DNA from: a virus
Reading direction: 5' to 3' (one strand)
Length of the DNA stretch: 41,290 nt
UHGV virus genome: UHGV-0387525
Shown here: positions 2,559 through 35,084 of the stretch, in pieces
How positions within the stretch are numbered: position 1 is the first letter of the stretch
Layout of the letters: each line of letters opens with the position of its first letter
Notes under the pieces: generated by a model
The model's database searches: none
Seen by the model: the letters and a program-made list of their open reading frames with translations, nothing else
What the model was told of the DNA's origin: nothing
Program-made: the position numbers and the translations under genes

Positions 2559-3581
2559 ATGTCTATCAATGCACTTAAGGCAGCGGCTACCGGTAACCAA
2601 GTTGCACATCATAATGAGAAACCAACAACTCTGGCCGGACTTCTGGCAGACCCAAAAATTAAAGCTCAGATGGCTTTGGCACTTCCAAAGCACATGACAG
2701 CAGACCGTCTGGCGCGCATAGCAACCACAGAGATCAGAAAGGTTCCAAAACTTGCATCATGCGACCAAGCCAGCTTCCTGGGGGCAATTATGCAATGTGC
2801 CCAATTGGGTCTTGAACCAGGCGGAGCTCTTGGACACGCTTACCTGATACCGTTCGACAAACGCCAGAAAGTAAATGGAAGATGGGAAACCGTATCTACA
2901 GAAGCACAGCTGATTATCGGCTATCGCGGAATGATTGACCTTGCCCGCCGCTCTGGGCAGATCCTGAGTATCTCGGCTCGTACCGTACATACAAACGACA
3001 AATTCAGCTACTCATACGGCCTGGAAGAAACGCTCGAGCATTTACCTTGCGAAACAGGTGACCGCGGAGAATTAACGCACGTTTACGCCGTTGCACGACT
3101 GAAAGATGGCGGAGTCCAATTTGAAGTTATGAGCCGGGCAGACGTTGAGAAAGTTCGTGCACTGAGCAAAGCCGGTAGCAGTGGCCCATGGGTTGATCAC
3201 TTCGATGAGATGGCTAAAAAAACAGTAATTCGCCGACTGTTCAAATATCTTCCTGTTTCTATTGAAATGCAGAAGGCTGTTGTTATGGATGAGCGCGCTG
3301 AAGCTGGACTTAGCCAAGATAACGCAGCTGTTATCACTGGTGAATATTCCGTAGTTGACGATGAGCGTCAACACCTGTCGCCAATTTCAGATTCAGAACG
3401 AGAAGAAGCTCGAGAATATATCATCGCGATACTTAATAGCCTGGATCCATCTGCTGAAGATGCAAAAACGATGTTCAAGCGCGCTGAAAATGAAATTAAC
3501 ACCATGGCTGAAAAGCTCGGTGATGAATATCACCAAAAATTCATGATGACGCTTAACGATATGCGTCCAGAATTCGAGTAA
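2559..3581 (+). CDS. recT: RecT single-strand annealing recombinase
   Basis: long stretches recalled as near-identical to Rac RecT (ATTEIRKVP, LGLEPG..LGHAYL, LIIGYRGMIDLARRSGQI, HVYAVARLKDGG, RRLFKYLPVSIE). Confidence 0.9.
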   Translation: MSINALKAAATGNQVAHHNEKPTTLAGLLADPKIKAQMALALPKHMTADRLARIATTEIRKVPKLASCDQASFLGAIMQCAQLGLEPGGALGHAYLIPFDKRQKVNGRWETVSTEAQLIIGYRGMIDLARRSGQILSISARTVHTNDKFSYSYGLEETLEHLPCETGDRGELTHVYAVARLKDGGVQFEVMSRADVEKVRALSKAGSSGPWVDHFDEMAKKTVIRRLFKYLPVSIEMQKAVVMDERAEAGLSQDNAAVITGEYSVVDDERQHLSPISDSEREEAREYIIAILNSLDPSAEDAKTMFKRAENEINTMAEKLGDEYHQKFMMTLNDMRPEFE

Positions 3582-4288: not shown

Positions 4289-4931
4289 TAAATACACACT
4301 AATCTATGCAGATCCACCCTGGGTATACCGGGACAAAGCCGCAGATGGTAATCGCGGTGCCGGTTTTAAATATCCGGTTATGAGTGTGCTGGATATCTGC
4401 CGCCTTCCTGTGTGGGATTTGGCCGATGAAAACTGTCTGTTGGCCATGTGGTGGGTGCCAACACAACCACTCGAAGCACTAAAAGTTGTTGAAGCCTGGG
4501 GATTCCGTCTGATGACGATGAAGGGCTTCACGTGGATAAAATGTGGTAGTCGACAACCAGATAAACTGGTTATGGGTATGGGACACATGACTCGCGCCAA
4601 TAGTGAAGATTGCCTGTTTGCGGTAAAGGGAAAACTACCTACGCGCATTAATGCAGGGATCGTTCAGTCATTTACCGCACCGCGGCTTGAGCATTCAAGA
4701 AAGCCAGATATCGTTCGTGAAAAACTTGTGCAATTATTAGGCGATGTTTCTCGCATTGAACTGTTCGCCAGCCAGACGTCTCATGGTTTCGATGTTTGGG
4801 GTAATCAGTGCGAAGACCCGGCAGTGCAACTACATCCTGGATACGCGTTGGATATTGGCGGATTAACAAATGCATTCAGCAATGCTCCGCTGTCACCAAC
4901 AGACAACCAGGGGCGGGAGCGTGCAGCATGA
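4281..4931 (+). CDS. MT-A70-family N6-adenine DNA methyltransferase
   Basis: DPPW motif ([10 protein letters not shown]); GGGGTGG RBS before ATG 4281; stop overlaps next start (ATGA). Confidence 0.8.
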
Positions 4932-5587
4932 ACCTATATCAACGCATCAATGGCGCTGACTGGTGCAATATCTTCGTCGTCGGCGATCTGCATGGGTGCT
5001 ACACACTGCTGATGAACGAACTCGACAAAGTTTCATTCGACCCGGCGCGCGATTTGCTTATTTCCGTTGGTGACCTTGTTGACCGCGGCGCTGAAAACGT
5101 CGAATGCCTGGATTTGATTACTATGCCGTGGTTCCGAGCTGTTCGTGGCAACCATGAGCACATGATGATTGATGGCTTATCAGAGCGTGGAAACGTCAAT
5201 CACTGGCTGCTTAATGGCGGTGGCTGGTTCTTTAATCTCGATTACGACAAAGAAATTCTGGCTAAAGCTCTTGCCCATAAAGCAGATGAACTTCCGTTAA
5301 TCATCGAACTGGTGAGCAAAGATAAAAAATATGTCATCTGCCACGCCGATTATCCTTGTGACGAATACGAGTTTGGAAAGCCAGTTGATCATCAGCAGGT
5401 AATCTGGAACCGCGAACGAATCAGCAACTCACAAGACGGGATCGTGAAAGAAATCAAAGGCGCGGACATGTTCATCTTTGGTCATACGCCAGCAGTGAAA
5501 CCACTCAAGTTTGCCAACCAGATGTATATCGATACCGGCGCAGTGTTCTGCGGAAATCTGACGCTTACCAAAGTCCAGGAAGGATAG
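4928..5587 (+). CDS. Ser/Thr protein phosphatase, lambda-phosphatase/PrpA-like
   Basis: metallophosphatase motifs GDLHG, GDLVDRG, GNHE; in-frame start at ATG 4928. Confidence 0.85.
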
Positions 5588-9242: not shown

Positions 9243-9270
9243 GCCCGCAATATTTTGCGGGCTTTTTTTT
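9243..9270 (+). terminator. plus-strand intrinsic terminator abutting the tailspike stop
   Basis: stem gcccgcaa/ttgcgggc, loop tatt, then eight T on plus strand. Confidence 0.55.
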
Positions 9271-12200
9271 AACGTTCTTCCAGAGACTGAACCCGCTCTT
9301 TTATCTTATCCATTTCTCTGCGCTGCCATGCTGCCTCGATATAGAATAAGAGATCAGGTCTGACCCCCCATCTAGATCCTGCTGGCGTTATTTCAACGCG
9401 CTCAATGATGTCTTCTATTACCATCACTGGATTATCATCCTCATCAACAATGATGCTCCCGTCATTATCAGTCAGCGGCATTTCCCTTTGGCCAGTAATG
9501 ACGTCATCATATACTGCGGGATAATCGTCATAGCAAAGAAAGGCATAGCGGCATGTTGTGCTTTCTTCTTCCATGAGTCCGTGAGAAATAAGAACATCAC
9601 GAAGTTGCTGCGCGATTACACCATGATGTATCCTCGCCCCTTCTTCCCCCTTTATAGCGACAGCGTTCAGCCATTTATAAGCGATATACCTGACGTCACC
9701 CCAGGCATCCAGCAATGCTTCGTCAGGAGAGACCGGCTCTGTCTTTAATGTTCCGTCACTGGTAACCACAGGATTGGAGCCAAGATAAACTGTCGAGAAC
9801 CTGTTTCCCGGACCACCAAGAGCATTTACATTATCAAGATAAGGTTTAACATCTCCGTTCTCAAAAAGATGTTCGAGTGCGTTATATACCGCGCGACGTG
9901 GAGTACTGCTTCCGGAACCATGCAACGTTATCATTGCACCATCTGCTGAAGACGTTGTTTCACCGCCGCTAACGATTAATCTCTGAGCGGTAACATCATC
10001 AGACGGTACTTTCTTCGCAATAATGGCGTAATTACCCTCAAGTTTGACTTCCGCGCGAACTTGTCCTGATGTACCTGCATGGACAGTCAGTGACTGGACG
10101 GCAACATCATCTGTGAAATCAACGGGTACAGGAACCGTCCTCACGCCTGACGTCGACATAAAAGTAGGAAGCGTTCTGTTAGGAGTGGCTCCGTAGACAA
10201 AATCCCTTGAAACAAATTCTTCCTGTTTAATTTTCACCCTGAAACAATACAAATCAGCCGGGTGACCATCGTGAACATAAGGATATTTTCTGTTGTTATC
10301 CCCTATGCTCCATGGGTTTAGAAAGTCTTCCCCACCGAAAATGTAGTACAGCCAGTTGTCTTTGATACAAACTGAACCAACACCAACCGCAGAGTTAACT
10401 ATTCCGCCCTGATAAATCTGATCAGTAACATTAACCCACTCTACATTATCCAGACTCCACTCATTGACGTTAACTCTGGTCATAAATGTTCTTGGATAAT
10501 TTCCTGCATAACGGTTATCAGGTTCTCCTCCTTCCCACTCACCAAATGCGCGCTCACTGCCAAAAATAATCAGCTCATCGCCAACTTTGGCAAAAGGAAG
10601 GTTTGAGTGATGAACATTATTTGGGAAGCGAAGAGAATTCCATGATGTACCTAAATCAGAGCTTCTGTGCAATGAACTACCGGGTTGAGTACTTAATGTC
10701 CCCCTGGTCGTCAGATACAGAATGCCATCATAATATTTTACACATGGCTCAGATGCATTCGCCTCATATTCTACAGGTATGCGTCTGCGAACAAAGCTAC
10801 CAGGAGAACCGAAAGCATCAGAGAAATAGAGTATCCCAAGCTCGCGTGGACCAATATCACCATTATGGTAGCCAACAGCAAAACTGTTATCGCTAATCGT
10901 CGCAAAACTGTGAATCTCAGTAACAGGAGTGCTTCCGTCAACAAAAGAAGGAATAGTTCCAAGACTGGTTTTTCTCCATGGTGACGAGTGAAATGATGTG
11001 CCAAAACTCCAGTATCTACCCTCGTTATTCTGATCCACATCCTGGGTATTTTGCGTCGTAACTGTAAAGGTATTTTTATCAATAACAGTAGTCACCGTCA
11101 TATTCCCGGTAACACCTGTAACACCAGAGTTTGAGAAGTTGACAAAATCACCAGCAAATAATCCGTGATCAGTAATGCGAATATAAGCGACTTGCTGATT
11201 TGCTGCTTTCGTTATACCACCATAAACGCGAAGGCTGCGACTCATTGGGCGATCCCACAACTCTGCAACCTGCAGTTTATTTCCTCTCACGGTCCGCGTC
11301 TCAATTACAGCAAAAAGGCGATTTCTGACAACCCCCATACTCATGCAGTGATAGTTAACTGTGGGATAGTTTTCATGTAAATCTGTAAGCCATTCCGGCG
11401 TTGTCCAGGTCTTCCCGTCATCTCCTGAGCGAACCCATGCAACATGGAGGTTATTCACACCATGGCGGTCTCCAGCCATAAAAGGCGCATAGATGACATT
11501 GTCATATACAAACGTTTTATCCTGCGTCCAGGCGTTGTACCACGGTGTATCTGTAATTTTAAATAACTCTCCCTGGATAAAATCTTCAGAAGCATAAAAA
11601 AGAGGCTGGCCCGGTATTCTCTCAAATAAAAAACGAGCATTTTTAAATCGACTGACATCCGGAAGAGTTGATACTTTAAAAGTAAGCCCTAATCCGTCAA
11701 TTTTATAACCTGGAGATGAGGCTTCAAGGCACGCGCTTATTGCAGTGGAATCGTCATTTATACCATCACCAACAGCTCCAAAATCTTTGGGGCTAATAGC
11801 ATCACGCATTTTATCCTGGAACGTTCGGTACACAGCCCCAGAACCATACTGAATAAACCAACCAAAACCACCAACAACTCCGGCGATTGCAGCATCGACA
11901 TAATTACGCATTGAGCGATTATTTACAGCGTCCTGCTCAAATGATGGATCTGCAAGGTTAGAAATTTTGTTTTGCTTTGCATCGTAATATTTTGCAAGCA
12001 AAGATGGTTTCATCAATGCACGTCTGAACCACCCAAAACATTGCTGGATCAGCATCGTCAGGTAGTCAAAGGCATCTTCATGCACTTCGGGGAAAAATTT
12101 TCCCTGATTGCGAAGGTCTGTGTCCTGCACTACATCAAGCACACGATCTATCGTAATTCGCCATCCAGTAGCAAGCGGAGACGGAAGAACCACAGAACCG

Positions 12201-12388
12201 CCACTATAAGTGCCCGCCCCAGTTACCGTATAACCGGTATCCAGGACCAATTCTGTTACGTTCCCGTTCAGGTCAGACACCTGAACAACCAGGTCTGATT
12301 TTCTGAAAATTCGAAAAGTATACGGAAACGATGTCGTAACGCCGTTACCGGTGTATTCGTTGTGGTCAACTTCGGTTGAGACCGTCAT
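9269..12388 (-). CDS. tail fibre/tailspike with predicted glycan depolymerase body and C-terminal S74-type intramolecular chaperone
   Basis: 1039 aa; N-terminus shows T7 gp17-like adaptor pattern (YTGNGVTTSFPYTF...VVQV); DFGAVGDGINDDSTAI pectate-lyase-like motif; Asp-box-like SGDDGKTW and SSDLGTSW; C-terminal ...ARIHHGVIAQQL chaperone-like segment. Confidence 0.75.
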   Translation of the reverse strand: MTVSTEVDHNEYTGNGVTTSFPYTFRIFRKSDLVVQVSDLNGNVTELVLDTGYTVTGAGTYSGGSVVLPSPLATGWRITIDRVLDVVQDTDLRNQGKFFPEVHEDAFDYLTMLIQQCFGWFRRALMKPSLLAKYYDAKQNKISNLADPSFEQDAVNNRSMRNYVDAAIAGVVGGFGWFIQYGSGAVYRTFQDKMRDAISPKDFGAVGDGINDDSTAISACLEASSPGYKIDGLGLTFKVSTLPDVSRFKNARFLFERIPGQPLFYASEDFIQGELFKITDTPWYNAWTQDKTFVYDNVIYAPFMAGDRHGVNNLHVAWVRSGDDGKTWTTPEWLTDLHENYPTVNYHCMSMGVVRNRLFAVIETRTVRGNKLQVAELWDRPMSRSLRVYGGITKAANQQVAYIRITDHGLFAGDFVNFSNSGVTGVTGNMTVTTVIDKNTFTVTTQNTQDVDQNNEGRYWSFGTSFHSSPWRKTSLGTIPSFVDGSTPVTEIHSFATISDNSFAVGYHNGDIGPRELGILYFSDAFGSPGSFVRRRIPVEYEANASEPCVKYYDGILYLTTRGTLSTQPGSSLHRSSDLGTSWNSLRFPNNVHHSNLPFAKVGDELIIFGSERAFGEWEGGEPDNRYAGNYPRTFMTRVNVNEWSLDNVEWVNVTDQIYQGGIVNSAVGVGSVCIKDNWLYYIFGGEDFLNPWSIGDNNRKYPYVHDGHPADLYCFRVKIKQEEFVSRDFVYGATPNRTLPTFMSTSGVRTVPVPVDFTDDVAVQSLTVHAGTSGQVRAEVKLEGNYAIIAKKVPSDDVTAQRLIVSGGETTSSADGAMITLHGSGSSTPRRAVYNALEHLFENGDVKPYLDNVNALGGPGNRFSTVYLGSNPVVTSDGTLKTEPVSPDEALLDAWGDVRYIAYKWLNAVAIKGEEGARIHHGVIAQQLRDVLISHGLMEEESTTCRYAFLCYDDYPAVYDDVITGQREMPLTDNDGSIIVDEDDNPVMVIEDIIERVEITPAGSRWGVRPDLLFYIEAAWQRREMDKIKERVQSLEER

Positions 12389-13612: not shown

Positions 13613-13627
13613 TTACCTTAAAGGTAA
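13613..13627. promoter_or_regulatory. operator-like palindrome TTACC-N5-GGTAA
   Basis: ttaccttaaaggtaa, 21 bp upstream of the minus-strand start at 13592. Confidence 0.6.
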
Positions 13628-13720: not shown

Positions 13721-13989
13721 ATTTACATCGCACTCCTCTTGTGCCATAGTAATCGGGCACTGGCAAAATCCAGTGCCGGGATTGGCGTCCCGGATTACTA
13801 AAAGGCGCATTCACCGCGCAAGCGGTTTTTTTATGCGTATAGCACGGCCACATTCGTATTATGGTGGGCTGTGTGGGGGCACCGAAAGGTGCGCCGGGTC
13901 CTTTTAGCCGGTTACGCCAACCCTGCACAGTTCACCACCAACCGATTGGCGTCGGTAGTGGTGATTAACCAGACTAAAAGGTAACCACT
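13721..13989 (+). ncRNA. candidate structured leader / small RNA upstream of ant
   Basis: no credible ORF; hairpins at 13757-13778 and 13776-13793; terminator-like hairpin accgc-gcaa-gcggt + T7 at 13813-13832; decoy SD-like actaaaagg 13797-13805; anti-SD ccttttag 13900-13907. Confidence 0.35.
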
Positions 13990-17361: not shown

Positions 17362-20300
17362 CTATTTCATCTGCTCTTCAACTTTATTTAGTAATGGTGA
17401 TATCGCCCACAGATTCTGAAAAGGTAGCATTTTACGGACAGCGTGGGTTTGCTGGCTGTCAAATTCTCCGTTAAGTACACCATTTGCAACCGTCGCGGCA
17501 TCACCGCCAAGATCAAAGGTAGGACCAAGTAAAGCACCAATAGCATTACGACTCTGAAACCTTGATACCGGAGGCGCACCAAACATCGCGCCAAGACCAA
17601 ACCTACCGCCGCTTATGTTCTCAACGGTATTCAGCGGCTCAGAGAGCCAGCCAAGCATTCCGCCCCGGTCGATCCCCTCTTTCACAAGGTTATTCCAGCT
17701 GTAGTCGATATCGCGACCGCTTAACTTCTGTTTCATCATATAGACCATTGAGCCAAGCGCAATCGTGCCAAGCGCACCAAGATAGAATGCAGCATCGCCC
17801 TGCTGGATACCAGATACCAGCACCCTGTTATGCTGTGCGAAGATAAACGTTTTGAACTGCGTGATCATCTTCCAGCCTTCTTTACTAAAAAACAGCGGTG
17901 TATCACCTACGCCAGGCGTTACAATCACTGAGTCTACATCTTTCAGCACTGCAGACTGGAAAATCTCTCTAGCGAAACGGTCATCCCACAGATGACTATG
18001 CCCGGTTAACAGCCCGCCCATATCCTCTCCGTGCTTCCCGAATTGCTCCCCGATTCGGCGCAGAACATCTTCATTGATGCCGACCTGTGCCATCTTCCGC
18101 ATTTCACTTTTGGAGAGCGTGCCACCAGCAGAAACTTGGCGAGCCGCGTCAAGTATCCTCGACTGCACTATCATCCCAGACCATGATTTAAGTGCGCTGT
18201 TCCACTGATTCATCAGCGTCCAGTTACCGAATTTCTGCGTCATCCAGTTCAGACCTCGCTCAGCGGCGCTTCTCCGGCTATAGGGGTCAGTAAGATCCGC
18301 TATAGCCTTTGTACGCGTAGACAGGACATAATCAAGCCCAACTGCCATTTCTCGCAAATCCCTGGTTGCAATTTTCACTGAGTCCATATTTTTAAGCATG
18401 CTTACCATTGGTCCGAGAGATTTTCTCAGGCCATGCTGCATCATCGGTCGCATCAGATCAGTTGCAGCGGAGACAGTCATTCCACCAAGCAAACGGAGGA
18501 AGTTAATATTCCTAGCAACTCGCCCGGCACGAACAAAGAAACTGCGTGGATCTTGAGGTGCACCGTAAGTACCAAGCAGTCGATCACGCATAGCCGTAAT
18601 ATCCCTAATATCAGCCTCCCGTTGCTTCTCAAGAACTGCACGTCGTTTAGGTGTTTTAGCCTCTTTTATTAGCCGGGTATATTCCTCACTAACCTGACGG
18701 ATTTGCTCCCCCATATCTTTACGGCCAAACTGCGCAGTCAGCTCAATTTCTGGTGCCACCTGCCGGAGATAACTTTCCATGATGTAGTTAACATCTGATT
18801 CAAGAAAATCTTCTATACGCTCATCAGGAATAAGCAGCGTTCTGCTTTTAGTGAAACCAGCCCGACCAACGAGTCTCTCTGGGATAATATCGGCTGGTAC
18901 AAGCCCGGAAGGTGCGCCTATTATTTTATTCACGATCTCGTCAGCAGCGTCCTCTGCTTCCTCTCGGGATAGAGGCTCCATCTGCTTCAGTGCTCGCTCG
19001 CGGCTTGCATTCAGCCTTGTGGTTGAATTTGCCCGTTTTTGCAGTCGGCGAAGCTCAGAACGATATTTCCGTGGATTATCCAGCAACTCCATATGGCGCT
19101 GATAGACAGGAAGCTCACTCTTTGCCTGCGCTATATCATCAAGGCGTGTTTTAAGGTCAGAGCTTTCTTTCATCATTCTTGCCTGAAGTTTTTCTGATGA
19201 AGTCTCGGCCAACTCTTTTTCTATTCTTGTAAGACGCGCCTGTGTGTCAGTCTCCTGAGATATAAGCTTATTTCGTTTATCCAGTTCTTCCATGAGTAGA
19301 ATTTTTTTACCAGACCATTTCTCCGCTTCAGCGATTTCACTAGCGAGAGCATCAGCGCGCGGTGCTGATTCCTCTGCAGTTTTTAGCAATGAATTTATCT
19401 TTTCAATTCGCTGACCTGCTTTGTCAGCACCTTTGGCACTAATCCCTTGTATCCAGTTGGCAATTCGCCCTCTGAATTCAGTGCGGTCGGAAAGTATCTT
19501 ATCGAACTTATAAATGCGGGGAAGATAACTCTTCGCCGTCACGACATCGATATCCTCAGGAAGGATCCCCAATTCCTGCATACGGGCTTTTGTGGTCTCA
19601 AAAATGGGGCGGATTCTGGCGGCTGCTTGTGAAACCTCAGGAATATCACTCTGATCACCACGGCGCATAGCCATGCCAACAGCTTCATTGAAATCAATAA
19701 AGTTCATCCTCTTCACGCCGCGGGCGCTGACAGATTTGCTGTACTGCTGGTAAGCATCACGAGTAGCTTCCATCTGCTTATAAAGCATGGCGTCGTATTG
19801 CTTAATCTTAGTCTCGACTGCCGTAAACGTAGCCAACCCCTCATCATTTTTGGCGAAGAAATAGTTATTTTCGGCAAGCTGCTGGTTAATCTGACGGGAG
19901 ACAAGAGATGGTGATTGCGCCAAGCGGCCAGCAGGAGTGACACTCAACGTTTTGTTAGCAAGTCCAAGTCCAGCGAGCTGTTCCTGATCGAGTGTGGTAT
20001 TGAAAACCTGAGCTGCACCAATGCTTTGAGGAGAATCCATACCTCGCAAATGATTACCTACTGAGTTAACCACTGCCTCGCGCGCGCTAGGTCCAGCAAG
20101 TAGCTGTGCACCAGCACCAAGGATCCCACCAACGAGAGCATCAACAACAACGTTCGATACGCTCTCCATCGGTGAGCGAGCTTCCTGAGTGGCCTGTAAT
20201 GCGGCTTCTGATACTCCCCCACCAGCAGCATTCGCCAGGGCAAAACGCCCTGCCGTCTCAGCAATACTTCCTCCACGCGCTACCGCCCCTACAGGGATGA

Positions 20301-20751
20301 ACATTGCAGCCACATTAACCGGGTCTATCATTCCCATTGCTAAGCTTGAAATAGTACCAGCACCACCCATTTCAGATAGATATTCTCTATCTGTTCTTTG
20401 CTTATCGATTCGATGTTTAATTGCCATTGTTTCTTCATGCGAACCGGAGTTGATAAACGAATCTGCAAAATCTTCATAGCCTTTAATATCTGCTGCATCG
20501 TTATCAAATGGGTTATATCCTTCAACCCTGTCAAACTGACTGAAAGGAGCACTGGCAATAAAGCTACCCAGCGTGTTATCTATACGAAATGCTGCTTGTC
20601 TAGACCTTTGAACGCGTTGATCACTGGTAAATGGGTTCACAGCAGAAAGCAAAGAAGGTGTTTCCATATAGAAATTACTGTCATCAGGTGCTGCTATTTG
20701 CTGAATATCCTCGCCAAGCAACTCTTTAGGATCCTGTTCATATATCGGCAT
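17362..20751 (-). CDS. large internal virion/ejection protein (T7 gp16-like by size and position)
   Basis: 1129 aa; Gly/Ala-rich and coiled-coil segments; last gene of virion block. Confidence 0.45.
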   Translation of the reverse strand: MPIYEQDPKELLGEDIQQIAAPDDSNFYMETPSLLSAVNPFTSDQRVQRSRQAAFRIDNTLGSFIASAPFSQFDRVEGYNPFDNDAADIKGYEDFADSFINSGSHEETMAIKHRIDKQRTDREYLSEMGGAGTISSLAMGMIDPVNVAAMFIPVGAVARGGSIAETAGRFALANAAGGGVSEAALQATQEARSPMESVSNVVVDALVGGILGAGAQLLAGPSAREAVVNSVGNHLRGMDSPQSIGAAQVFNTTLDQEQLAGLGLANKTLSVTPAGRLAQSPSLVSRQINQQLAENNYFFAKNDEGLATFTAVETKIKQYDAMLYKQMEATRDAYQQYSKSVSARGVKRMNFIDFNEAVGMAMRRGDQSDIPEVSQAAARIRPIFETTKARMQELGILPEDIDVVTAKSYLPRIYKFDKILSDRTEFRGRIANWIQGISAKGADKAGQRIEKINSLLKTAEESAPRADALASEIAEAEKWSGKKILLMEELDKRNKLISQETDTQARLTRIEKELAETSSEKLQARMMKESSDLKTRLDDIAQAKSELPVYQRHMELLDNPRKYRSELRRLQKRANSTTRLNASRERALKQMEPLSREEAEDAADEIVNKIIGAPSGLVPADIIPERLVGRAGFTKSRTLLIPDERIEDFLESDVNYIMESYLRQVAPEIELTAQFGRKDMGEQIRQVSEEYTRLIKEAKTPKRRAVLEKQREADIRDITAMRDRLLGTYGAPQDPRSFFVRAGRVARNINFLRLLGGMTVSAATDLMRPMMQHGLRKSLGPMVSMLKNMDSVKIATRDLREMAVGLDYVLSTRTKAIADLTDPYSRRSAAERGLNWMTQKFGNWTLMNQWNSALKSWSGMIVQSRILDAARQVSAGGTLSKSEMRKMAQVGINEDVLRRIGEQFGKHGEDMGGLLTGHSHLWDDRFAREIFQSAVLKDVDSVIVTPGVGDTPLFFSKEGWKMITQFKTFIFAQHNRVLVSGIQQGDAAFYLGALGTIALGSMVYMMKQKLSGRDIDYSWNNLVKEGIDRGGMLGWLSEPLNTVENISGGRFGLGAMFGAPPVSRFQSRNAIGALLGPTFDLGGDAATVANGVLNGEFDSQQTHAVRKMLPFQNLWAISPLLNKVEEQMK

Positions 20752-23498
20752 TATTTGCCCCCTGCGTATATATTGCTCGGAAGGTAATTGGCTGAACCAT
20801 AACCGAATGGTTTGGTCAGATCTGGAGGAGTATATCCATCTTTATTGCTGAACTGCGGCAGCGGATTGCCTTCTCTCCGCACTCTAGCCTCATCAACACG
20901 CTGTTGCTGGAACTGAATGGTTTGCCTGTACATTGGAGATGTCAGCTGATCCGGCTTGAAACGAACAGGGAGACCATTTTCTCCAATATAATTTCTCGGT
21001 TCTATCGCTCCGTTTGCGTCAGGCTGTAAAACCATAACAGCATAACTCCTATCCCTTGCCGTAAGGCCATCAGAAACAAGTATTAAGTCCGTATCACTGC
21101 GAGGACCGCCAAAGGATTTTGATTTAAGCTCGCGTTTTTCCTGCTCCCACTGCCCCTGTATCCAGTTACCAGCACCATTATTTACTCCGTACAATGCCTC
21201 AGGTGCATACTTCATAACCTCTGCTTTGCCATTAACTGTAGAAACTCCCCAGGTGGTTCTGATCATGGCATTGGTCATTTTCTCAGCCTGTTCTGCATCG
21301 CCACCTGTCTGTACAAAGTTAGCATCGTAAATTGTCTGGTAATCTCGCTGATAGGCCGCATTTGATTTTCCTGGATCGGTAATATCCGGAGACCACGAAC
21401 CAAAGGAAGTCAGACTGCTGGCGTTATTTTGTGCAGCAGTTGCCCTCGCCGCGACATATTTTTTGTCTCGCATGGCAGTGGAAAGCATCTGTTTCATTCG
21501 GTCATCCTGTTGGAACACCTGGCTGTAAGCCATATCAACAGCCTTATCCTCCGGCACGCCAGCGCGGGAATAATCATAAACCTTGCCGTAAAATGCCATC
21601 GTACTTTTATCAAGTGTTGCCGCTGCCGCCGGATTATTATCGAATAACTGACCGTAGAATTTTGCCATCGGGACAACCAGCGCAGGATCTCTTGATGTTG
21701 CTCCACTGTTAAGCATTGTTTTAACCTGAGTTGGTATCATGCCGCTTTTAGTTGTGACGGTGACCAGTGTATTGATGCTCTGCGGATCAGATATGGAAAA
21801 CGAAGGCGCGATATCCTGCGCGAAATAACGGTCTACCGCTGCCTGATTGTTTTTGTCGTTAGGGTCCAGCGGGAAGTTATTTTGCATTGAAGACACGAAC
21901 CTGTTTCTTCCCTGCTGAATCTCCCACTCCCTATCCATCTCTTTAAATTTGGCCTGCATTTTCTCCCAGCGTTGCTGGTTAGCTGCAAATCCAGGAGCGT
22001 TTGGATCCTGTGGACGTAAACGTTCAAGAATGTCTTGTCGTCCTTCTGGAGTGAGGTCTTTAGCGGCACCAATGACACCTCCATATTGTATCTGCGCCTG
22101 CATATCCTTCCACTTCATAGCGCCAATGCGCGGACCATTGGCCCGGATAAAATCGTCCTCAGAAGGTAACTTCTCAGGTTTCAATCCTTCATCAAGGGCT
22201 GAATATGCATCTTTAACTACGGTGCTAAGCTGGTCCGCATACTGCTGGCGGTACTGATTTCTCAGCTCATTAGCCTGCCTCAATGCCTGTATTTGCATTT
22301 GAGGGCTCATAGCGTCAAATGCCGCATTGCCCGTATAACGCTTAGGTGAATCAAGGTTAGTTAGACCAAGGGCTGCCGAGATACCAGTTTCAAGCTGTTC
22401 GGTGCTATAAGGCATACTGCCATTTTCGTGTTTAATAATCCCAGCACATAAAGCAGCTAGTGTCTTTGGGTTAGAGATATCAAGCTGATCATTCTCCCCA
22501 ACACCAAGCTCACTACACAATGCCCTAATATAAGCATCAGTATTATTACCATCACTAGCCGGAGCATAGCGATTAACAATCTCGCTAACGGTGTCATAGC
22601 CTTGACGCTGGTAAGACAACATATTTTTACCCAACGCGCGGATTCCATGCTCAGGGGTAGCAAACGTTGCAAAACGTCCATCGCTACCGATCTGACCTTC
22701 CCACGGGTTAGATTTGCTCGCTTCAATATTGCCAGGGTTATTATTACGTAAACCACGAGCATCCAATGAATTACCATGTGATATTGCACGACTCACACCA
22801 TCAAGATCCCCTGGCTCTCCATTAACCTGAAGAAACTCGTTGTATTTTTGAGCGATATTTCCTATCCATGCTTGCTGCCCCATTTGTTCCTTGAGCTGAG
22901 TTTTCTGCTGAACACGCCACTCATCAGGAAGCCCATGCGCATCAGCGTATTGATCAATAGATTCAAATCGCTGCTTGGCTAAATCGACAAATGCTTGGTT
23001 ATCGCTATATAGCCCCGCAGACTGAGTGACAGCCAATGCATTTCCTGACAAATACGTTTGATCTTGGAATTGCTGAAACTGCCCAACTTCATATCGACGT
23101 GCCTGATTGTAATAAGACTGCATAGACTGCTGGAGTTGAAAGGATAATTTATTCCTTTCCTCACTTTCAGGAATTGAGCCTAATAATGCCTGAGCCCTTT
23201 CCTGCATATTTTTCATAACAGCGTCACTCTGACCAAGAGCGTTTTTACCCTGTTTAGAAATCAGCCCATTTTCAGGGTTGTTAATCTGGTCATCTGCAAA
23301 TTGGTTAAATTGCAGTAACGCCTCCTGGGCCATAGCAACATTCGCTTTCTGCCTAGCTTCACCATATGCCACCGCATACTGATCTGCGACATTCGCCAGC
23401 ACCTGACCTGCTTGAGGAACATCGAAGGTCTGAAAACCACCGGTTTGCACACCACGACTTTGCACCTGGCGTCCGGATGTAGTAGGAACAACAGGCAT
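20751..23498 (-). CDS. internal virion protein (T7 gp15-like by position), possible muralytic segment
   Basis: 915 aa; segment RGLRNNNPGNI...FATFATPEHGIRALG resembles virion-associated cell-wall hydrolases (unverified). Confidence 0.4.
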   Translation of the reverse strand: MPVVPTTSGRQVQSRGVQTGGFQTFDVPQAGQVLANVADQYAVAYGEARQKANVAMAQEALLQFNQFADDQINNPENGLISKQGKNALGQSDAVMKNMQERAQALLGSIPESEERNKLSFQLQQSMQSYYNQARRYEVGQFQQFQDQTYLSGNALAVTQSAGLYSDNQAFVDLAKQRFESIDQYADAHGLPDEWRVQQKTQLKEQMGQQAWIGNIAQKYNEFLQVNGEPGDLDGVSRAISHGNSLDARGLRNNNPGNIEASKSNPWEGQIGSDGRFATFATPEHGIRALGKNMLSYQRQGYDTVSEIVNRYAPASDGNNTDAYIRALCSELGVGENDQLDISNPKTLAALCAGIIKHENGSMPYSTEQLETGISAALGLTNLDSPKRYTGNAAFDAMSPQMQIQALRQANELRNQYRQQYADQLSTVVKDAYSALDEGLKPEKLPSEDDFIRANGPRIGAMKWKDMQAQIQYGGVIGAAKDLTPEGRQDILERLRPQDPNAPGFAANQQRWEKMQAKFKEMDREWEIQQGRNRFVSSMQNNFPLDPNDKNNQAAVDRYFAQDIAPSFSISDPQSINTLVTVTTKSGMIPTQVKTMLNSGATSRDPALVVPMAKFYGQLFDNNPAAAATLDKSTMAFYGKVYDYSRAGVPEDKAVDMAYSQVFQQDDRMKQMLSTAMRDKKYVAARATAAQNNASSLTSFGSWSPDITDPGKSNAAYQRDYQTIYDANFVQTGGDAEQAEKMTNAMIRTTWGVSTVNGKAEVMKYAPEALYGVNNGAGNWIQGQWEQEKRELKSKSFGGPRSDTDLILVSDGLTARDRSYAVMVLQPDANGAIEPRNYIGENGLPVRFKPDQLTSPMYRQTIQFQQQRVDEARVRREGNPLPQFSNKDGYTPPDLTKPFGYGSANYLPSNIYAGGK

Positions 23499-30207: not shown

Positions 30208-30500
30208 TCCTGTTCACTGGCCTCTTTGGCCATCTTCAAATACTGTTCAGGGCAATGCGCCATAACGCGCTGAAACAGTTCCAGCGCCAGATTGCGTTGC
30301 CCCTCATTAAATGCCATTGCCATAGCGTCCATCGGTGAGATAGCGGAAAACACACGGCCTTTCTCCAGCACCGACCAGACAACGCGACGCCCCTGTTCAC
30401 TGCTCATGACAAAGCGAATGTCATCAATTTCACGCTGTGCCATGTCACGTTGCTTACGGGCGTTTTCTTCTTTCAGTTGATCGTCTTCGTAATCTGTCAT
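30204..30500 (-). CDS. hypothetical head-assembly protein
   Basis: 98 aa, charged; coupled between portal and scaffold. Confidence 0.35.
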   Translation of the reverse strand: MTDYEDDQLKEENARKQRDMAQREIDDIRFVMSSEQGRRVVWSVLEKGRVFSAISPMDAMAMAFNEGQRNLALELFQRVMAHCPEQYLKMAKEASEQE

Positions 30501-32176
30501 TGTGATTGCCCACCCTGACCACTAACTGCATTCGCCATAGCTGACAAAACACTCGGATCCGAAGTTTTAGCTTCGCTTAGCGTCTTGGCACCCTGTGCCG
30601 CCGCCATCCCCATCGCCATCATTTGTTGCTGCTGTTGTTGCTGTGCCCGTTGCTGGCGAGCCTGCTCAACCTGTTCCTGCGGAACAATGACGGTTGGAGA
30701 CACTCCGGACATATCAGCGAATGCATCGATCGCCTGATCAACGTTGAGTTTGTCGAGAGCTTCTGGTTTCGCTTGCGCAAGTTGACCAATGAAGTTAACC
30801 GTGGACGCCAGACTGGACAGGCCGATAGACTTCTGCGCCTGAGCCATGACGGAAATGTATTCGACCTTCAGGGGCATGCCTTCCATCGCGTCAGGCGGTG
30901 GCGGCAGCATGTTTTTACGCACCATCATCGAGAAAGAGCGATCAATGAGAGGATTAAGACATTCGTCGTTCAGGCGCTCCAGAACCGGCCCCAACATCAG
31001 AAGTTTTTCTTCTTTCATTTCGATCACCGCTTCCACAGGCATCGAGCGGGTATTGATGTTCTGCAACATCATGAACAGATCGACAAAGTAGGCGCTGTTA
31101 ATGATTTGACGAGTGTCCTGAATGTCTGCCACCAAATCTGCTGTACTGGGGTTAACCAGATAAGCAGGCCTGAAACCATCCTGACCAGTAATCTGATCGA
31201 TATACGTGATGTCGCCAGGAAGAAGGGAGGCACGCTGATTCTTGAGGGAATTCGGAGCAACCATCGGCGGATTGGTGGCTTTATCAATCAACTGCGACTT
31301 GCGCTTCTGGAGAAGCTGCAATGCCTTAACAGGTCCAAGCGCCAGCATACCCGGGCATGATGATCCATAAACATCTTCGCCGTTAACTTCCCAGCGCGGG
31401 GCCATAATTGGAAACTCATCGAATCCGGACTCACGCAACAACTTGTCGTTATCGCCACCAACCTCGTAATAAACCGATTTGAATGGCTTGTTCTTGCTAT
31501 CCAGCTTCGATGTATCGCGGTCAATGTTCGGGTAAACCGAATGCATCACTTCAATCCACTTCTCGTAGGTTCCGCTTTCCCACATGCTTTTTACGGATTC
31601 GCTGACGTTATTTAGCCCGAACTCCTGAACAAGCTGACGAACAGTCATAGAGAACTTGCGAAAACAGGTGTCCACACTGCCACGAGGTGAGTTAGCCAGG
31701 TAGTAACTGCCTATCGGGAATGGCATTGTGCGAATGATGTCCTCGTCATCCTCCAGCACTGCCATTGCACCAGTGCTGTATGTGCCGAGGCTTCCGTATA
31801 ACTGCGGCAGCGACTGATAGAGATTCGACTTATTGAACATATCGTTCATGCGGTTCTGCACCGCCTCAAGCCACAACTTAACAGGGCCATAATCCATCAT
31901 TTCAGGATCTGGCGTAGCCAGGCGAAACCACGGACGCGCGGGGCTTGTGATGCCTGACATCATGCCGCTGGCGAGAGTGCGCGCCGCCATAGTCCCGGTC
32001 GAATCAATAATGCGTGTATTGCGTCGATCGTTACGGTTAACCTCAGAAGCCAGAAAGCGGGAACCACGCGGGTTGATGTAATCACTCAACTCGCGCCAGT
32101 GCGGCTCGAACGACTGACGCTCGCTTTCAAGTTGTGCGAACTGTTTGTTCAATCGCTCTTTAGTTGTTTCCGCCAT
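30497..32176 (-). CDS. portal protein (T7 gp8-like)
   Basis: 559 aa; Gln/Ala/Met-rich C-terminal tail resembles T7 gp8; follows terminase. Confidence 0.8.
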   Translation of the reverse strand: MAETTKERLNKQFAQLESERQSFEPHWRELSDYINPRGSRFLASEVNRNDRRNTRIIDSTGTMAARTLASGMMSGITSPARPWFRLATPDPEMMDYGPVKLWLEAVQNRMNDMFNKSNLYQSLPQLYGSLGTYSTGAMAVLEDDEDIIRTMPFPIGSYYLANSPRGSVDTCFRKFSMTVRQLVQEFGLNNVSESVKSMWESGTYEKWIEVMHSVYPNIDRDTSKLDSKNKPFKSVYYEVGGDNDKLLRESGFDEFPIMAPRWEVNGEDVYGSSCPGMLALGPVKALQLLQKRKSQLIDKATNPPMVAPNSLKNQRASLLPGDITYIDQITGQDGFRPAYLVNPSTADLVADIQDTRQIINSAYFVDLFMMLQNINTRSMPVEAVIEMKEEKLLMLGPVLERLNDECLNPLIDRSFSMMVRKNMLPPPPDAMEGMPLKVEYISVMAQAQKSIGLSSLASTVNFIGQLAQAKPEALDKLNVDQAIDAFADMSGVSPTVIVPQEQVEQARQQRAQQQQQQQMMAMGMAAAQGAKTLSEAKTSDPSVLSAMANAVSGQGGQSQ

Positions 32177-32190
32177 TTCAATGACTCCGG

Positions 32191-32397
32191 TTACTGACCA
32201 AGCAGCGTTTTACCGCTGGTATTAGCGGTTGATGTGTCGCCCTGAGAACCGGTAAGCAGCGTAGAACTACGACCAGCAGCAGCGCGACGGCGACGAGTTT
32301 CTTCGTCGCGGGCATCAACAACGGCGGCATCCTGCTCCTGTGGTGCTGCCTGAACTTCTGGTGTTGCAGGCACTGATGGTGAGCTACCCATGCACAT
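32191..32397 (-). CDS. small low-complexity hypothetical protein
   Basis: 68 aa; its initiation region CGGAGTCATTGA-ATG is repeated at the portal start. Confidence 0.3.
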   Translation of the reverse strand: MCMGSSPSVPATPEVQAAPQEQDAAVVDARDEETRRRRAAAGRSSTLLTGSQGDTSTANTSGKTLLGQ

Positions 32398-32487
32398 ATC
32401 AATGACTCCGTACGCAATTAAATTATTACCAATTTAACCACATATGATTTATTTATCGTAGGTGGTTGACATTTAACGCACAAATTA

Positions 32488-32502
32488 TTACCTTTCAGGT
32501 AA
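32488..32502. promoter_or_regulatory. operator-like palindrome with upstream TTGACA
   Basis: ttacctttcaggtaa; TTGACA at 32466-32471. Confidence 0.6.
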
Positions 32503-32824
32503 CAAAAGAGTTCATTCCGGTTACTAACCTGACTGGCTTGTCGTTAAATTGAACAGGTGGAGTGAGCTTTTATTTTGAGCAGTACGGCGTATGGCACATG
32601 CGCCGATAGCGGTCTGGATACGTTTAAGGGGCACCCTCCCTGGCTGTGGCAAACGAACCAGGTAGCCGGAATGTGCAAGTCGAGCGGTTTTATTCCGCGC
32701 ACGGGGATTCACCATCCCGGCGATTCGGTGTGACGCCTCGGAAGAGACGAGGGTACAACGATGAGAGCATTTATGGAGCCGCGACAAAGTGTGGCGCCTT
32801 AACAGGCTAAGTGCTCTCAGCGTT

Positions 32825-32901
32825 GTGGCATTAGCTCAGTTGGACAGAGCAACCGCCTTCTAAGCGGTTGGTCGCAGGTTCGAATCCTGCATGCCACGCC
32901 A
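32825..32901 (+). tRNA. tRNA-Arg (anticodon UCU)
   Basis: manual cloverleaf: acceptor GTGGCAT/ATGCCAC, D-arm GCTC/GAGC, anticodon stem ACCGC/GCGGT with loop CTTCTAA, T-arm GCAGG-TTCGAAT-CCTGC, discriminator G, encoded CCA. Confidence 0.9.
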
Positions 32902-33062
32902 GAATCACGCCTAAGGACCGTGATGCCAGAAGTTCCAGGTGCTTGGCGGTGATAGTTTCCCTTGAAGGACTATCACCGCCCTTTTTACAGCAGGACGCCA
33001 TTGCGATGACTTCATGCTGTAAACCCGTACAGCCACGGAAGGCATAACTCATTGCTTCCAGT

Positions 33063-33088
33063 TCGCCCGGTTCGCCGGGCATTTTTTA
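33063..33088 (+). terminator. rho-independent terminator downstream of tRNA
   Basis: stem gcccgg/ccgggc, loop ttcg, then six T. Confidence 0.7.
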
Positions 33089-33098
33089 AGGTGAGATC

Positions 33099-33518
33099 AT
33101 GAAGACAATTGATATGTTGGCTAAGTATCTAAATGAATGGCCATTAAAATATTCTCGTATCGTTCAGGCTGAAGACTGCATTTTTTATGGCGTTTTTGCT
33201 GGTAATGAAATGCATTACGAAGTAATTCAGAGTGAGGGACTGGCCGGGTTAACTCTTAGCGAAGACCATGGTACTAGCGTTACGTTCCATGACTGGATAA
33301 CAGCACAACGTTCTGAAATGGAAAAAGGCGATGTTTTTGATATTTCTCGCGCTGTTTACGCTAAAGCAAAAAGTGATAATGATTACATGAGCGAACACTT
33401 ATACAACATGAAGTTACAATGCCTGCATGCGGCGCTTATTCAGAATGGGCACTTCGATAAAACAAGTGCCATCAATATTGCGGAAGCCATCAACGCTGGA
33501 TTTAATGCCATTAAGTAA
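33099..33518 (+). CDS. hypothetical accessory protein
   Basis: 139 aa; AAGGTGA RBS before ATG 33099; opposite strand to flanking structural genes. Confidence 0.5.
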   Translation: MKTIDMLAKYLNEWPLKYSRIVQAEDCIFYGVFAGNEMHYEVIQSEGLAGLTLSEDHGTSVTFHDWITAQRSEMEKGDVFDISRAVYAKAKSDNDYMSEHLYNMKLQCLHAALIQNGHFDKTSAINIAEAINAGFNAIK

Positions 33519-33538: not shown

Positions 33539-33566
33539 AGCCAGCCGATGAGCTGGCTTTGTTTTA
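33539..33566 (+). terminator. rho-independent terminator
   Basis: stem agccagc/gctggct, loop cgatga, then TTGTTTT. Confidence 0.55.
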
Positions 33567-33608: not shown

Positions 33609-35084
33609 TTAAGCATATGGATCGTAATCTGTGATGGCCTTGCCTTGCTGGTTCTGCTGCCCGGGAATTCGCAGACGCTTCGACACAGGGAACGCAAACG
33701 TCAGCAGTAGCGCATCGCCTTTACCAGGAGAACGCCCAAGCCGCTCCTTGATATCTTCCTTCGGTTCGATAACGATTTTACCGTCCACTCGAACTTTGTA
33801 CTCTGCCGCAGACAGGTCGTCCGCTGTTTCCTGGTCATCCAGCATGCCGCCCAGCCTCAGCCATGTCTTGCATGAGTTGAACATCTCCCCACGCTTGTTG
33901 AGCATCTGCGGGTCAGTAGACGCGCCACCGAACGGAACAAGTTGCCATGTACGACCCCAGCCATCACCGATTGACTTCAGACCAGTTCCGTAACCGAAGT
34001 CGATGAACACTGCGTCAGCCTGGTACTGGTCTTCAAAGTCAGCGATACGCTTCGCCATAATCAGATCGTCAGTGGTCTTGTTGCCAGTCCACAGCACCTT
34101 ACTGTGCAGCCCCTGCCGCAGGTATATCACAGCGTCATCAACGCCGGAGTATGCCGGGTCAACGCCGATTATCACCGGAGCATGTGCAACCTGCGCAGCG
34201 GTTACCACCCGTTTCATTGCCTCGTCAGTAAGGCCGGTAGGGATAAACTGCAATTCAGATGCATCCGGGAATATGCCGCGCACACGGATTTTAACGAAGT
34301 CGCTGTCTTCCCCGTAGTCATCAACCCATTTCTGCAACTGCTGTTTGTTAGTGCCTTCCACCGTCCGGCTGTCAATCTGCGCAGTTTTCCAGCGGTGTTT
34401 ATATTTGCGGAAACATTCGCGAAAACGCCCGGTGTTACGTGTAGGGTTTCCGAACGCCACCCAGATAATCTCAGTGTCTTCGTCCGTAAGCGCACCCTCA
34501 GCAACTTCCCACACCAGATCCGCAATGTTCGACGCTTCATCGAATACCACGATGATGCGTTTGCGCTCGTTGTGTAGTCCGGCGAATGCCTCAGTGTTGT
34601 GCTCAGACCAGGGTATTGCGTCAGCCCGCCACCGCTTGTCGTGCCCAGGGTCATTGCTGTACATCGCGGTAGCGGTACAGGTAAACCAGTCTTTCGTGAT
34701 AGCAAGGTTCGACCACTTGATAATTTCCGGCCAGGTCTTCGTTCGTAGCTGGTTGTCGGTGTTGGCGGTCACCACGACCTTACAATCCTCGCAAGTGGAC
34801 ATGCCCCAGTTGATCAGCATTGAGATGAATGCGGATTTACCAATACCGTGACCAGAAGCGCGTGCCAACATAAGCGGCTGATAGCGCGTCTCTGGATTCT
34901 GCAGGTGATCACGTATCTCTCGGAACGCATCAGCCTGCCACTGACGTGGGCCGGTAGCATGTGCCAGTTCAGTCCCCTCTTCCCCCCACGGGAACGCATA
35001 GAGGGCATAGCCAAGCGGATCGTGAGTGAACCCTGCAATATCCTCGATTAACTGCTCTTCAGGAGATAACGCTGTATCTGTCAC
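33609..35084 (-). CDS. terminase large subunit
   Basis: 491 aa; Walker A-like ARASGHGIGKS; acidic nuclease-type C-terminal half. Confidence 0.85.
   Translation of the reverse strand: MTDTALSPEEQLIEDIAGFTHDPLGYALYAFPWGEEGTELAHATGPRQWQADAFREIRDHLQNPETRYQPLMLARASGHGIGKSAFISMLINWGMSTCEDCKVVVTANTDNQLRTKTWPEIIKWSNLAITKDWFTCTATAMYSNDPGHDKRWRADAIPWSEHNTEAFAGLHNERKRIIVVFDEASNIADLVWEVAEGALTDEDTEIIWVAFGNPTRNTGRFRECFRKYKHRWKTAQIDSRTVEGTNKQQLQKWVDDYGEDSDFVKIRVRGIFPDASELQFIPTGLTDEAMKRVVTAAQVAHAPVIIGVDPAYSGVDDAVIYLRQGLHSKVLWTGNKTTDDLIMAKRIADFEDQYQADAVFIDFGYGTGLKSIGDGWGRTWQLVPFGGASTDPQMLNKRGEMFNSCKTWLRLGGMLDDQETADDLSAAEYKVRVDGKIVIEPKEDIKERLGRSPGKGDALLLTFAFPVSKRLRIPGQQNQQGKAITDYDPYA

Follow-up and report, generated by a model that had tools for sequence, protein, structure and literature searches.

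The viral genome UHGV-0387525, a stretch of 41,290 nucleotides (nt) that we call the window, contains a spacer of about 320 nt between a predicted promoter and a gene for tRNA-Arg. We find that this spacer is fully accounted for by a 5' leader hairpin (X1), a 173-nt core, and a long hairpin (X2), and that the core together with X2 represents, on comparative sequence evidence, a conserved family of structured RNAs supported by covariation. The cassette in which it lies reads, in order, promoter/operator, X1, core, X2, tRNA-Arg(UCU), terminators T1 and T2, an open reading frame (ORF) of unassigned function (ORF139), and a third terminator, T3. An earlier note made from the letters of the window alone had been unable to match the spacer to a known RNA and had suggested a cotranscribed noncoding RNA or a processing substrate; the lack of a match persists in covariance-model searches, and the suggestion is borne out, if understated, by the presence of the same folded element in many unrelated phages, among them Shiga toxin phages and other lambda-like phages, whose early operons it heads. 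The widely conserved part of the cassette is this RNA and not the tRNA, and the family is apparently undescribed. Far from being filler, it probably serves, we propose, to regulate transcription early in the phage cycle.

Structure and covariation of the element

The core (positions 32583-32755, plus strand) was aligned across 27 representatives that are less than 90% identical to each other, and the covariance model built from this alignment scores the window copy at 141.3 bits (E = 9e-43). Long invariant blocks, namely AUGGCACAUG, AGCGGUC, the 19-nt GGUAGCCGGAAUGUGCAAG (32661-32679 in the window), GGCG, and GGU.UG, alternate in the alignment with variable hairpins. The predicted fold, all on the plus strand, opens with the hairpin P1 (32585-32605; 8 bp with the loop GGCAC) and with P2 (32613-32616 paired with 32659-32662), which encloses a variable insert; coordinates throughout the core are those of a constrained fold. 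The variable hairpin P3 lies 3' of the invariant 19-mer and is followed by P4 (32704-32718), whose loop, UUCACCA in the window, is conserved as YUCACCA across the alignment. The CACC of this loop (32710-32713) forms a pseudoknot with a downstream GGUG (32727-32730), a pairing that is swapped to AACC/GGUU in the clade of phage mEp460, and P5 (32736-32752; loop GAAGAGA) completes the core.

With this fold, 96.9% of the alignment cells that should be paired form standard pairs, against 30-52% when the partners are slid by one to three columns. Changes on both sides of a pair are seen at 10 pairs, in 53 cells, and none of 500 shuffles reaches these values; a single pair of P1, for example, occurs as G-C in 15 sequences, A-U in 11, and G-U in 1. 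Two U-G pairs (columns 8/18 and 31/90) are invariant or nearly so; read from the minus strand they would become A-C mismatches, which identifies the plus strand as the folded one. The main fold that RNAalifold returned by itself, with a long-range GGCACAU/AUGUGC helix replacing P1, was rejected, since the local P1 covaries from G-C to A-U. All columns of the long-range helix are invariant and offer no covariation to judge it by, and a contact between the P1 loop and the block is possible.

The X2 hairpin (32755-32825, plus strand) is closed by CAACG/CGUUG and has a highly variable tip. All 31 distinct versions fold as a hairpin closed by CAAC/GUUG, and 7 of the 16 consensus pairs show compensatory changes; the 3' strand of some versions reads UGCUCUUU. 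The last G of X2 is also nucleotide 1 (G1) of tRNA-Arg, and RNase P would therefore cut exactly at the base of X2, a step that we infer from the overlap of the two features. Tips that contain perfect hairpins of the tRNA T-arm type occur in four loci (L101, L105, L252, and L014), GCGGUUCGAUUCCGCC being an example. Upstream of the core, X1 (32506-32571, plus strand; -22.9 kcal/mol, z = -1.8) is a somewhat degenerate copy of the X2 hairpin module and aligns with the upstream hairpin of other epsilon15-like phages and with the 3' hairpin of the version from a Stenotrophomonas phage.

An alternative reading, a protein-coding gene on one strand or the other, can point to ORFs of 52-87 codons and to the coding sequences deposited over the element as "hypothetical proteins" in mEp460 (mEp460_037), Enterobacter phage Tyrion, mEp390, and SopranoGao. 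Against it, the insertions and deletions that separate homologues across the spacer have lengths that are not multiples of three, the translations are rich in arginine and unnatural in composition, and conservation tracks base pairs rather than codons. We hold a coding function to be scarcely credible and exclude it for practical purposes; the deposited genes (2443-2811 of the mEp460 locus, for mEp460_037, 2211-2372 of the Tyrion locus, 2011-2253 of L011, and 2198-2368 of L010) are probably spurious calls. The view of the earlier note that 32503-32824 holds no credible ORF is likewise upheld, only short arginine-rich frames being present on either strand.

Distribution among phages and bacterial genomes

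A sensitive BLAST search with 32500-32826 matched 32584-32826 at 71-82% identity in phages unrelated to phiV10, the type to which the window belongs (see below). These include the lambda-like phages mEp460, cdtI, 2H10, Ayreon, the Stx2c and Stx2a phages, 1720a-02, and mEp390, as well as Klebsiella, Enterobacter, and Salmonella phages and one Stenotrophomonas phage; P1, P7, D6, SJ46, and RCS47 match 32584-32746 only. The element is present in 1840 of 5426 complete Escherichia coli genomes, annotated in none of these, and in 591 plasmid records, most of which have a P1-like size of about 80-100 kb. Scans of IMG/VR and of a collection with one genome per species yielded 120 viral loci and about 23 true chromosomal loci, the latter all from Enterobacterales except for one short contig labeled Bacillota; the pattern used on the genome collection was loose, and about 95 of its 120 matches were due to chance and were removed with the covariance model. 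Loci are cited below by label where needed (L002, epsilon15; L003, mEp460; L006, Tyrion; L009, the Stenotrophomonas phage; L069, a Uetakevirus-type phage).

The setting of the element is similar in the lambda-like phages. In mEp460, Stx2a_1447, 1720a-02, mEp390, and the Stenotrophomonas phage BUCT708, a cI-like gene is followed by a promoter region and then, on the same strand, by the element, after which come several hundred more noncoding bases and the left-operon genes. In mEp460, a terminator stands right after cI, and two TTGC-N7-GCAA sites just upstream of the element resemble those between cI and cro (OR), for which reason we take the promoter there to be the repressor-controlled left promoter; promoter-like sites also lie about 30-110 nt upstream of the element in mEp390 and the Stenotrophomonas phage. 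Behind the element and its terminator, the lambda-like phages carry about 11 left-operon genes, followed farther along in the same direction by int. The right-operon genes of mEp460 are tightly packed up to Q, and only the leader of the left promoter contains terminators. No N gene is annotated in any of these five phages, and the first downstream genes, which differ between phages, matched at ten loci only PHROG families of unknown function, none of them N-like. P1 retains the core alone, between trnI and ban, inside the C1-controlled ban operon. The main immunity repressor thus controls the RNA in three kinds of temperate phage that are unrelated to one another. In SopranoGao, an apparently virulent Klebsiella phage, it lies 3' of the lysis genes.

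Some lineages have lost parts of the cassette. In epsilon15 (2548-2710 of its locus), a deletion starting inside P2 removes the core, X2, the tRNA, and T1, and the sequence is rejoined just before T2; the epsilon15 record labels the remaining X1/P1 region an "RNaseIII" processing site. The L069 cassette (4700-5400 of its locus), with the promoter about 28 nt from the core, lacks X1 and the tRNA, retains three terminators, and has ORF139 shrunk to a remnant of 9 codons. In two further loci (3997-4959 of L028 and 3100-4230 of L090), two copies of the core, one of them degenerate, or of its upstream flank bracket an inserted gene on the opposite strand, an arrangement suggestive of a recombination hot spot at which genes are inserted.

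Losses and duplications of this kind, that is, the near absence of the element from epsilon15, the core alone in P1, and the duplicated or degenerate copies around inserted genes in L028 and L090, might be taken to mean that the spacer is a passive leader, be it a recombination scar, a mosaic boundary, or a tRNA precursor spacer hitchhiking with the tRNA and terminator. This seems very unlikely to us: compensatory changes preserve four helices and a pseudoknot across lineages, the 19-nt block is invariant among sequences otherwise less than 90% identical, and most lineages carry the element without any tRNA.

Comparison with known RNA families

Against Rfam 15, the spacer had no match at the gathering thresholds (window) or at E <= 10 (32380-33110), and no family was found for the element in seven related loci at E <= 0.05; the scans of the window and the seven loci returned only tRNA, the small RNAs isrK and C4, and unrelated weak matches. 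Two other matches were seen at related loci. In Tyrion, an int-alpA RNA match (3208-3272 of its locus; 44 bits against a gathering score of 35.8) is found 3' of its ORF139-like gene, and in the Stenotrophomonas phage a subthreshold RprA-like match (2131-2250 of its locus; 50 bits against 70) overlaps the end of X2 and the terminator, its score probably being driven by the terminator hairpin. In the full-text literature searched, whose coverage does not extend to King 2011 on antiterminator RNAs, no such RNA is described and the invariant 16-mer is not printed; nothing relevant was found on the phiV10/epsilon15 tRNA or on transcripts of the P1 ban region.

The closest functional parallel is offered by the put RNAs, putL and putR of phage HK022 and the putL-like RNA of HK639, whose properties we take from PMC9378689. 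Like them, the RNA described here is a promoter-proximal structured RNA that heads an early operon without N and is followed by terminators and genes, with no dedicated protein gene adjacent to it; as in HK639, it is present in a single copy, in the left operon. In mEp460, Stx2a_1447, 1720a-02, mEp390, and BUCT708, it stands 3' of an early repressor-controlled promoter and 5' of terminators in the absence of N, and its position in the window is put-like as well, with the operator and candidate promoter upstream and T1 and T2 downstream. In contrast, put is of about 70 nt with two stem-loops (126 nt annotated in HK639), whereas the core of about 155-175 nt has four helices and a pseudoknot plus the added hairpin; the present RNA is also found in P1 and epsilon15-like podoviruses and beside tRNAs; and antitermination, proven for put, which suppresses termination in cis through the beta-prime zinc-binding domain of RNA polymerase, is proposed here. 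Membership in the put family was rejected: a BLAST comparison with the whole HK022 genome gave only a chance 19-nt match, and the core model found nothing in HK022 and HK639 at E <= 1, nor in the putL-like region of HK639 with filters off. Short words shared with HK639 (ACGGCG...CAUGCGUCG and GAUUUACCAGC) are too poorly collinear to count.

Other systems share one or another aspect of this organization. The nut elements and the boxB-boxA-boxC leaders of rrn operons also start early or untranslated transcripts. A boxA follows the core in two loci only, as an exact rrn-type copy (GCTCTTTAACAA) in L090, where it stands behind a small hairpin in place of X2 (3330-3385), and as a copy with one mismatch right after the core in L047 (at about 2240). 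The stretch UGCUCUUU on the 3' strand of some X2 versions is a further point of likeness. However, contexts of the window type have no boxA within two mismatches of the consensus (GCUCUUUAACAA or CGCUCUUA), the phages lack N, and most of the element resembles neither boxA nor boxB. Phages of the 933W type have a late leader, pR'-qut-tR', with tRNA genes upstream of stx. The likeness to the cassette is in the succession of a promoter, a short noncoding RNA, one or more strong terminators, tRNA genes, and a cargo gene; the late leader depends on Q acting on DNA, whereas the present unit is controlled by a repressor operator, lies elsewhere in the genome, and has no evident Q-like partner. Finally, GOLLD, ROOL, and the stable RNAs C and D of T4 are structured phage RNAs of unknown function that are often adjacent to, or cotranscribed with, tRNA genes. 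GOLLD and ROOL are of 500-800 nt, come mostly from Firmicutes, and are in Rfam; the present RNA, in contrast, measures about 240 nt, is carried by Enterobacterales and Stenotrophomonas phages, and is matched by no Rfam family.

The operator and candidate promoter

Upstream of the spacer, the hexamer TTGACA (32466-32471, plus strand), a perfect -35 element read directly from the sequence, marks a candidate early promoter. Its -10 candidate, TACCTT (32489-32494), lies 17 bases 3' of it and has 3 of 6 consensus matches (T1, A2, and T6), which are the three most important positions. It overlaps the palindrome TTACCTTTCAGGTAA (32488-32502), of the form TTACC-N5-GGTAA. Sites of this form with at most one mismatch number 15 in the window, against 0.73 expected, and none of 100 shuffles contained at least 15; because of this excess, we regard the palindrome as a credible repressor operator. 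Most copies are intergenic and lie beside promoter-like hexamers, the arrangement TTGACA-N17-TACCTT recurs in epsilon15 and L069, and the epsilon15 record annotates the equivalent site as repressor-binding. The earlier proposal of an operator-controlled promoter at 32466-32502 is thus well supported as a prediction, with the qualification that the -10 element is weak and a consensus promoter scan called no promoter there.

The operator sites span the window from 343 to 41209, with a consensus of about ATTACCnnnnnGGTAAT, and are often paired (343/391, 1103/1165, 13613/13706, 35677/35695, and 39194/39256). As predicted from the sequence, the 15 palindromes probably map the full repressor regulon of the phage. 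Near the promoter, an exact direct repeat, AAATTATTACC, occurs at 32420-32430 and 32482-32492, and ATTTAAC is repeated on the flanks of the -35 element; these repeats may represent a second or divergent regulatory site between the cassette and the small ORF upstream of it. The epsilon15 record places an IHF site in this direct-repeat region.

The tRNA gene and the slot that it occupies

The tRNA-Arg with the anticodon UCU (32825-32901, plus strand) was called by ARAGORN (tct) and by Rfam RF00005 (73.3 bits, E = 2.5e-14; gathering score 29), as the earlier note had proposed, and its 3' end, ...GCCACGCCA, is encoded with the CCA. Across 35 ORFs of the window, AGA and AGG account for 8.2 and 5.6 per 1000 codons, and they cluster in some of the large ORFs, 9269-12388 and 17362-23498 among them. 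The corresponding figures in E. coli K-12 are about 2 and 1.2 per 1000, so that the usage in the window is roughly four times as high, and the importance attached earlier to a phage tRNA for the rare AGA codon is justified. A role in codon supply is a reasonable reading, and early, repressor-controlled expression would provide the tRNA before late-gene translation.

The association with tRNAs is variable. Loci of the phiV10 type and some from Klebsiella carry tRNA-Arg(UCU) directly against X2; those of the P1 type carry tRNA-Met/Ile2(CAU) immediately 5' of the core. In the lambda-like versions and L069, the slot of the tRNA is occupied by a domain of 90-130 nt bracketed by GUGG...CCAC (2742-2880 of the mEp460 locus and 5020-5110 of L069), which an acceptor-like stem of 5-6 bp closes and in which, for mEp460, D-like and T-like arms can be drawn. 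The cloverleaf-like fold of this domain lacks statistical support (z = -1.1 to -1.5), and the domain may be an element resembling a tRNA or the decayed remains of one. Between the tRNA and T1 of the window lies a small hairpin (32904-32924), AUCACG-CCUAAGGAC-CGUGAU, that is kept in L069 despite the absence of a tRNA there.

Terminators and ORF139

Three plus-strand terminators or terminator-like hairpins follow the tRNA. T1 (32945-32986) has a 14-bp stem (32945-32980) and five T residues, and is stronger than T2 (33065-33087), which has the 6-bp G+C stem GCCCGG-UUCG-CCGGGC (33065-33080) and six T residues. The single strong terminator foreseen in the earlier note corresponds to T2 and is confirmed; T1, the terminator-like T3 (33539-33558), which closes the plus-strand unit before the convergent terminase gene, and ORF139 had been missed. 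T1 and the terminator behind the element in mEp460 have the same flanks, GGCGGT...ACCGCYCTTTTTACA, and hence T1 travels with the RNA between phage types. T2 is conserved in epsilon15 and L069. In close relatives of the phiV10 type, the terminators have folding energies of about -20 to -23 kcal/mol.

ORF139 (33099-33518, plus strand) matches phrog_4846 over its full length (E = 2.2e-89), a PHROG of unknown function, and has no Pfam match. It starts 11 nt past the T run of T2, which its ribosome-binding site directly abuts. No promoter was called between T1 and ORF139 in the consensus scan, and the only plus-strand candidate upstream of the gene is the operator-controlled promoter, which lies 600 nt away on the far side of T1 and T2. 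In a survey of 64 nonredundant contexts of the element, a strong terminator on the same strand lies 150-750 nt 3' of the core in 40, with at least two in 14; the same count gives 15 on the opposite strand and 5 upstream of the core. The next real gene after the element is usually codirectional.

Proposed function

Taking up the position of the element, we tentatively favor, as a possibility that falls somewhat short of even, that the core is a cis-acting leader that enables RNA polymerase to read through strong downstream terminators. Upon loss of the repressor, the RNA would be among the first sequences transcribed, and an RNase P cut at the 5' end of the tRNA would separate it from the tRNA. 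The core would modify the transcribing polymerase, alone or with host Nus-type factors, and the modified enzyme would complete the long untranslated RNA and pass the terminators into ORF139 in the window or into the left operon in the lambda-like phages. Such a leader would work in the manner of the HK022 and HK639 put RNAs while standing outside their family, and the tRNA would supply AGA decoding for the phage genes rich in AGA and AGG. Read-through seems needed on several counts: because same-strand terminators follow in 40 of the 64 contexts and the next gene is usually codirectional; in the window, because the conserved ORF139 stands behind T1 and T2 with no promoter in between; and in mEp460, Stx2a_1447, and 1720a-02, because there is no N, the terminators of mEp460 being confined to the leader of the left promoter. 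The boxA variants right after the core in some loci, including the exact one, also count in favor of this reading.

Extending the proposal, with slightly less confidence, we suggest that the core and X2 could define a new class of antiterminators, made of RNA only or of RNA and Nus factors, unrelated to put. This would be the missing early antitermination device of the many N-less lambda-like phages, those of the Stx2a and Stx2c types included. Phages like P1 and epsilon15 would have taken over the same device for driving untranslated cassettes that carry a tRNA or cargo.

Several observations weigh against the cis-acting leader, and some of them count in favor of its main rival, a possible but somewhat less likely reading in which the RNA is itself the product: an immediate-early, processed, stable RNA that acts in trans by binding a conserved host component. 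It would be released by RNase P at the tRNA and possibly by RNase III at X1/X2, the tandem terminators would end the unit, and the downstream genes would be expressed by leak-through only. Conceivable partners include RNA polymerase, for which it would be a 6S-like decoy, the ribosome, an enzyme that handles tRNAs, and a defense nuclease that targets them. L069 and similar cassettes without cargo keep the promoter, core, X2, and terminators intact, and read-through in L069, with its 9-codon ORF139, would yield only antisense of the terminase gene. Conversely, epsilon15 has lost most of the core and still keeps its ORF139 homologue behind T2. Tandem terminators behind a tRNA are also what one would see where an ordinary stable-RNA operon ends. 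Further weighing on the cis-acting leader are the placement of the core in P1, at a distance of 2.3 kb from the promoter and with no terminator following, the weakness of the -10 element, and the failure of the core model, filters off included, to find anything in HK022 or HK639, which leaves no link to a proven antiterminator RNA. A trans-acting RNA is additionally favored by the tRNA that lies 3' of the element in phiV10-type and some Klebsiella loci and 5' of it in the P1 type, by the tRNA-sized domain in the slot of other variants and the T-arm-like hairpins in some X2 tips, by the movement of T1 with the element between phage types, by the 19-nt block, whose invariance from E. coli to Stenotrophomonas phages suggests binding to a conserved host machine, and by the precedent of GOLLD and ROOL as large phage RNAs beside tRNA genes. 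Yet the lambda-like cassette separates the sole operator-bearing left promoter from the roughly 11 left-operon genes, with int beyond, in phages without N, and strong terminators in that place would shut the operon down; ORF139 lacks its own promoter; and no candidate partner or target was identified.

A third explanation makes the core a sensor, riboswitch-like or protein-dependent, which would recognize either a small molecule or a protein, of the phage or of the host, whose gene lies elsewhere. It would thereby govern the number of early transcripts that get past T1 and T2, as a checkpoint for the left operon or for the cassette. The core has the size, the pseudoknot, and the long unpaired stretches of invariant sequence that RNAs binding ligands or proteins typically have, it is always 5' of the terminators, and the exact boxA after it in some variants points to Nus factors. 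Nevertheless, the terminator is 190-500 nt from the core, and since X2 and the tRNA lie in between, the alternative pairing usual in riboswitches is impossible; a riboswitch with T1 as its platform was rejected on this ground, T1 starting 190 nt past the core. There is also no Rfam riboswitch match, and no protein gene is consistently linked to the element. We regard a sensor as improbable and retain the cis-acting leader as the preferred reading.

Genomic context of the cassette

The 711 bases around the region from the promoter to T2 share 98% identity with phiV10, a phage of Escherichia, and with related phages, and the window as a whole is, by its sequence, assigned to a phiV10/epsilon15-like phage of the genus Uetakevirus type. 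The cassette, about 1.2 kb long, is inserted on the plus strand and flanked by two structural genes of the minus strand, identified from the ORF map and the epsilon15 record: the portal gene (30497-32176) and the large terminase gene (33609-35084), the latter convergent with it; a small gp3-like ORF (32191-32397, minus strand), identified in the same way, separates it from the portal gene. Elsewhere in the window, isrK (13757-13832; 77.9 bits) and the C4 antisense RNA (13857-13942; 77.7 bits) are adjacent, just 3' of the operator palindromes at 13613 and 13706. The arrangement resembles the immI region of P1 and P7, here in a phage of the epsilon15 type, and the isrK-C4 pair is also present in mEp460 (206-394 of its locus).

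Implications

If the family is truly undescribed, one of the commonest structured RNAs of E. coli prophages, present in about one-third of the complete genomes, in P1, and in Stx2 phages, has gone unannotated, several records carrying spurious "hypothetical proteins" over it instead. Natural covariation already provides compensatory mutants of its fold. Were the RNA to act in trans, it would still be a new immediate-early phage RNA linked to tRNAs. As a cis-acting leader, its place among the first sequences transcribed after derepression could explain how N-less lambda-like phages express the left operon, with int downstream, past strong terminators, which would bear on prophage induction and on the biology of Shiga toxin phages.

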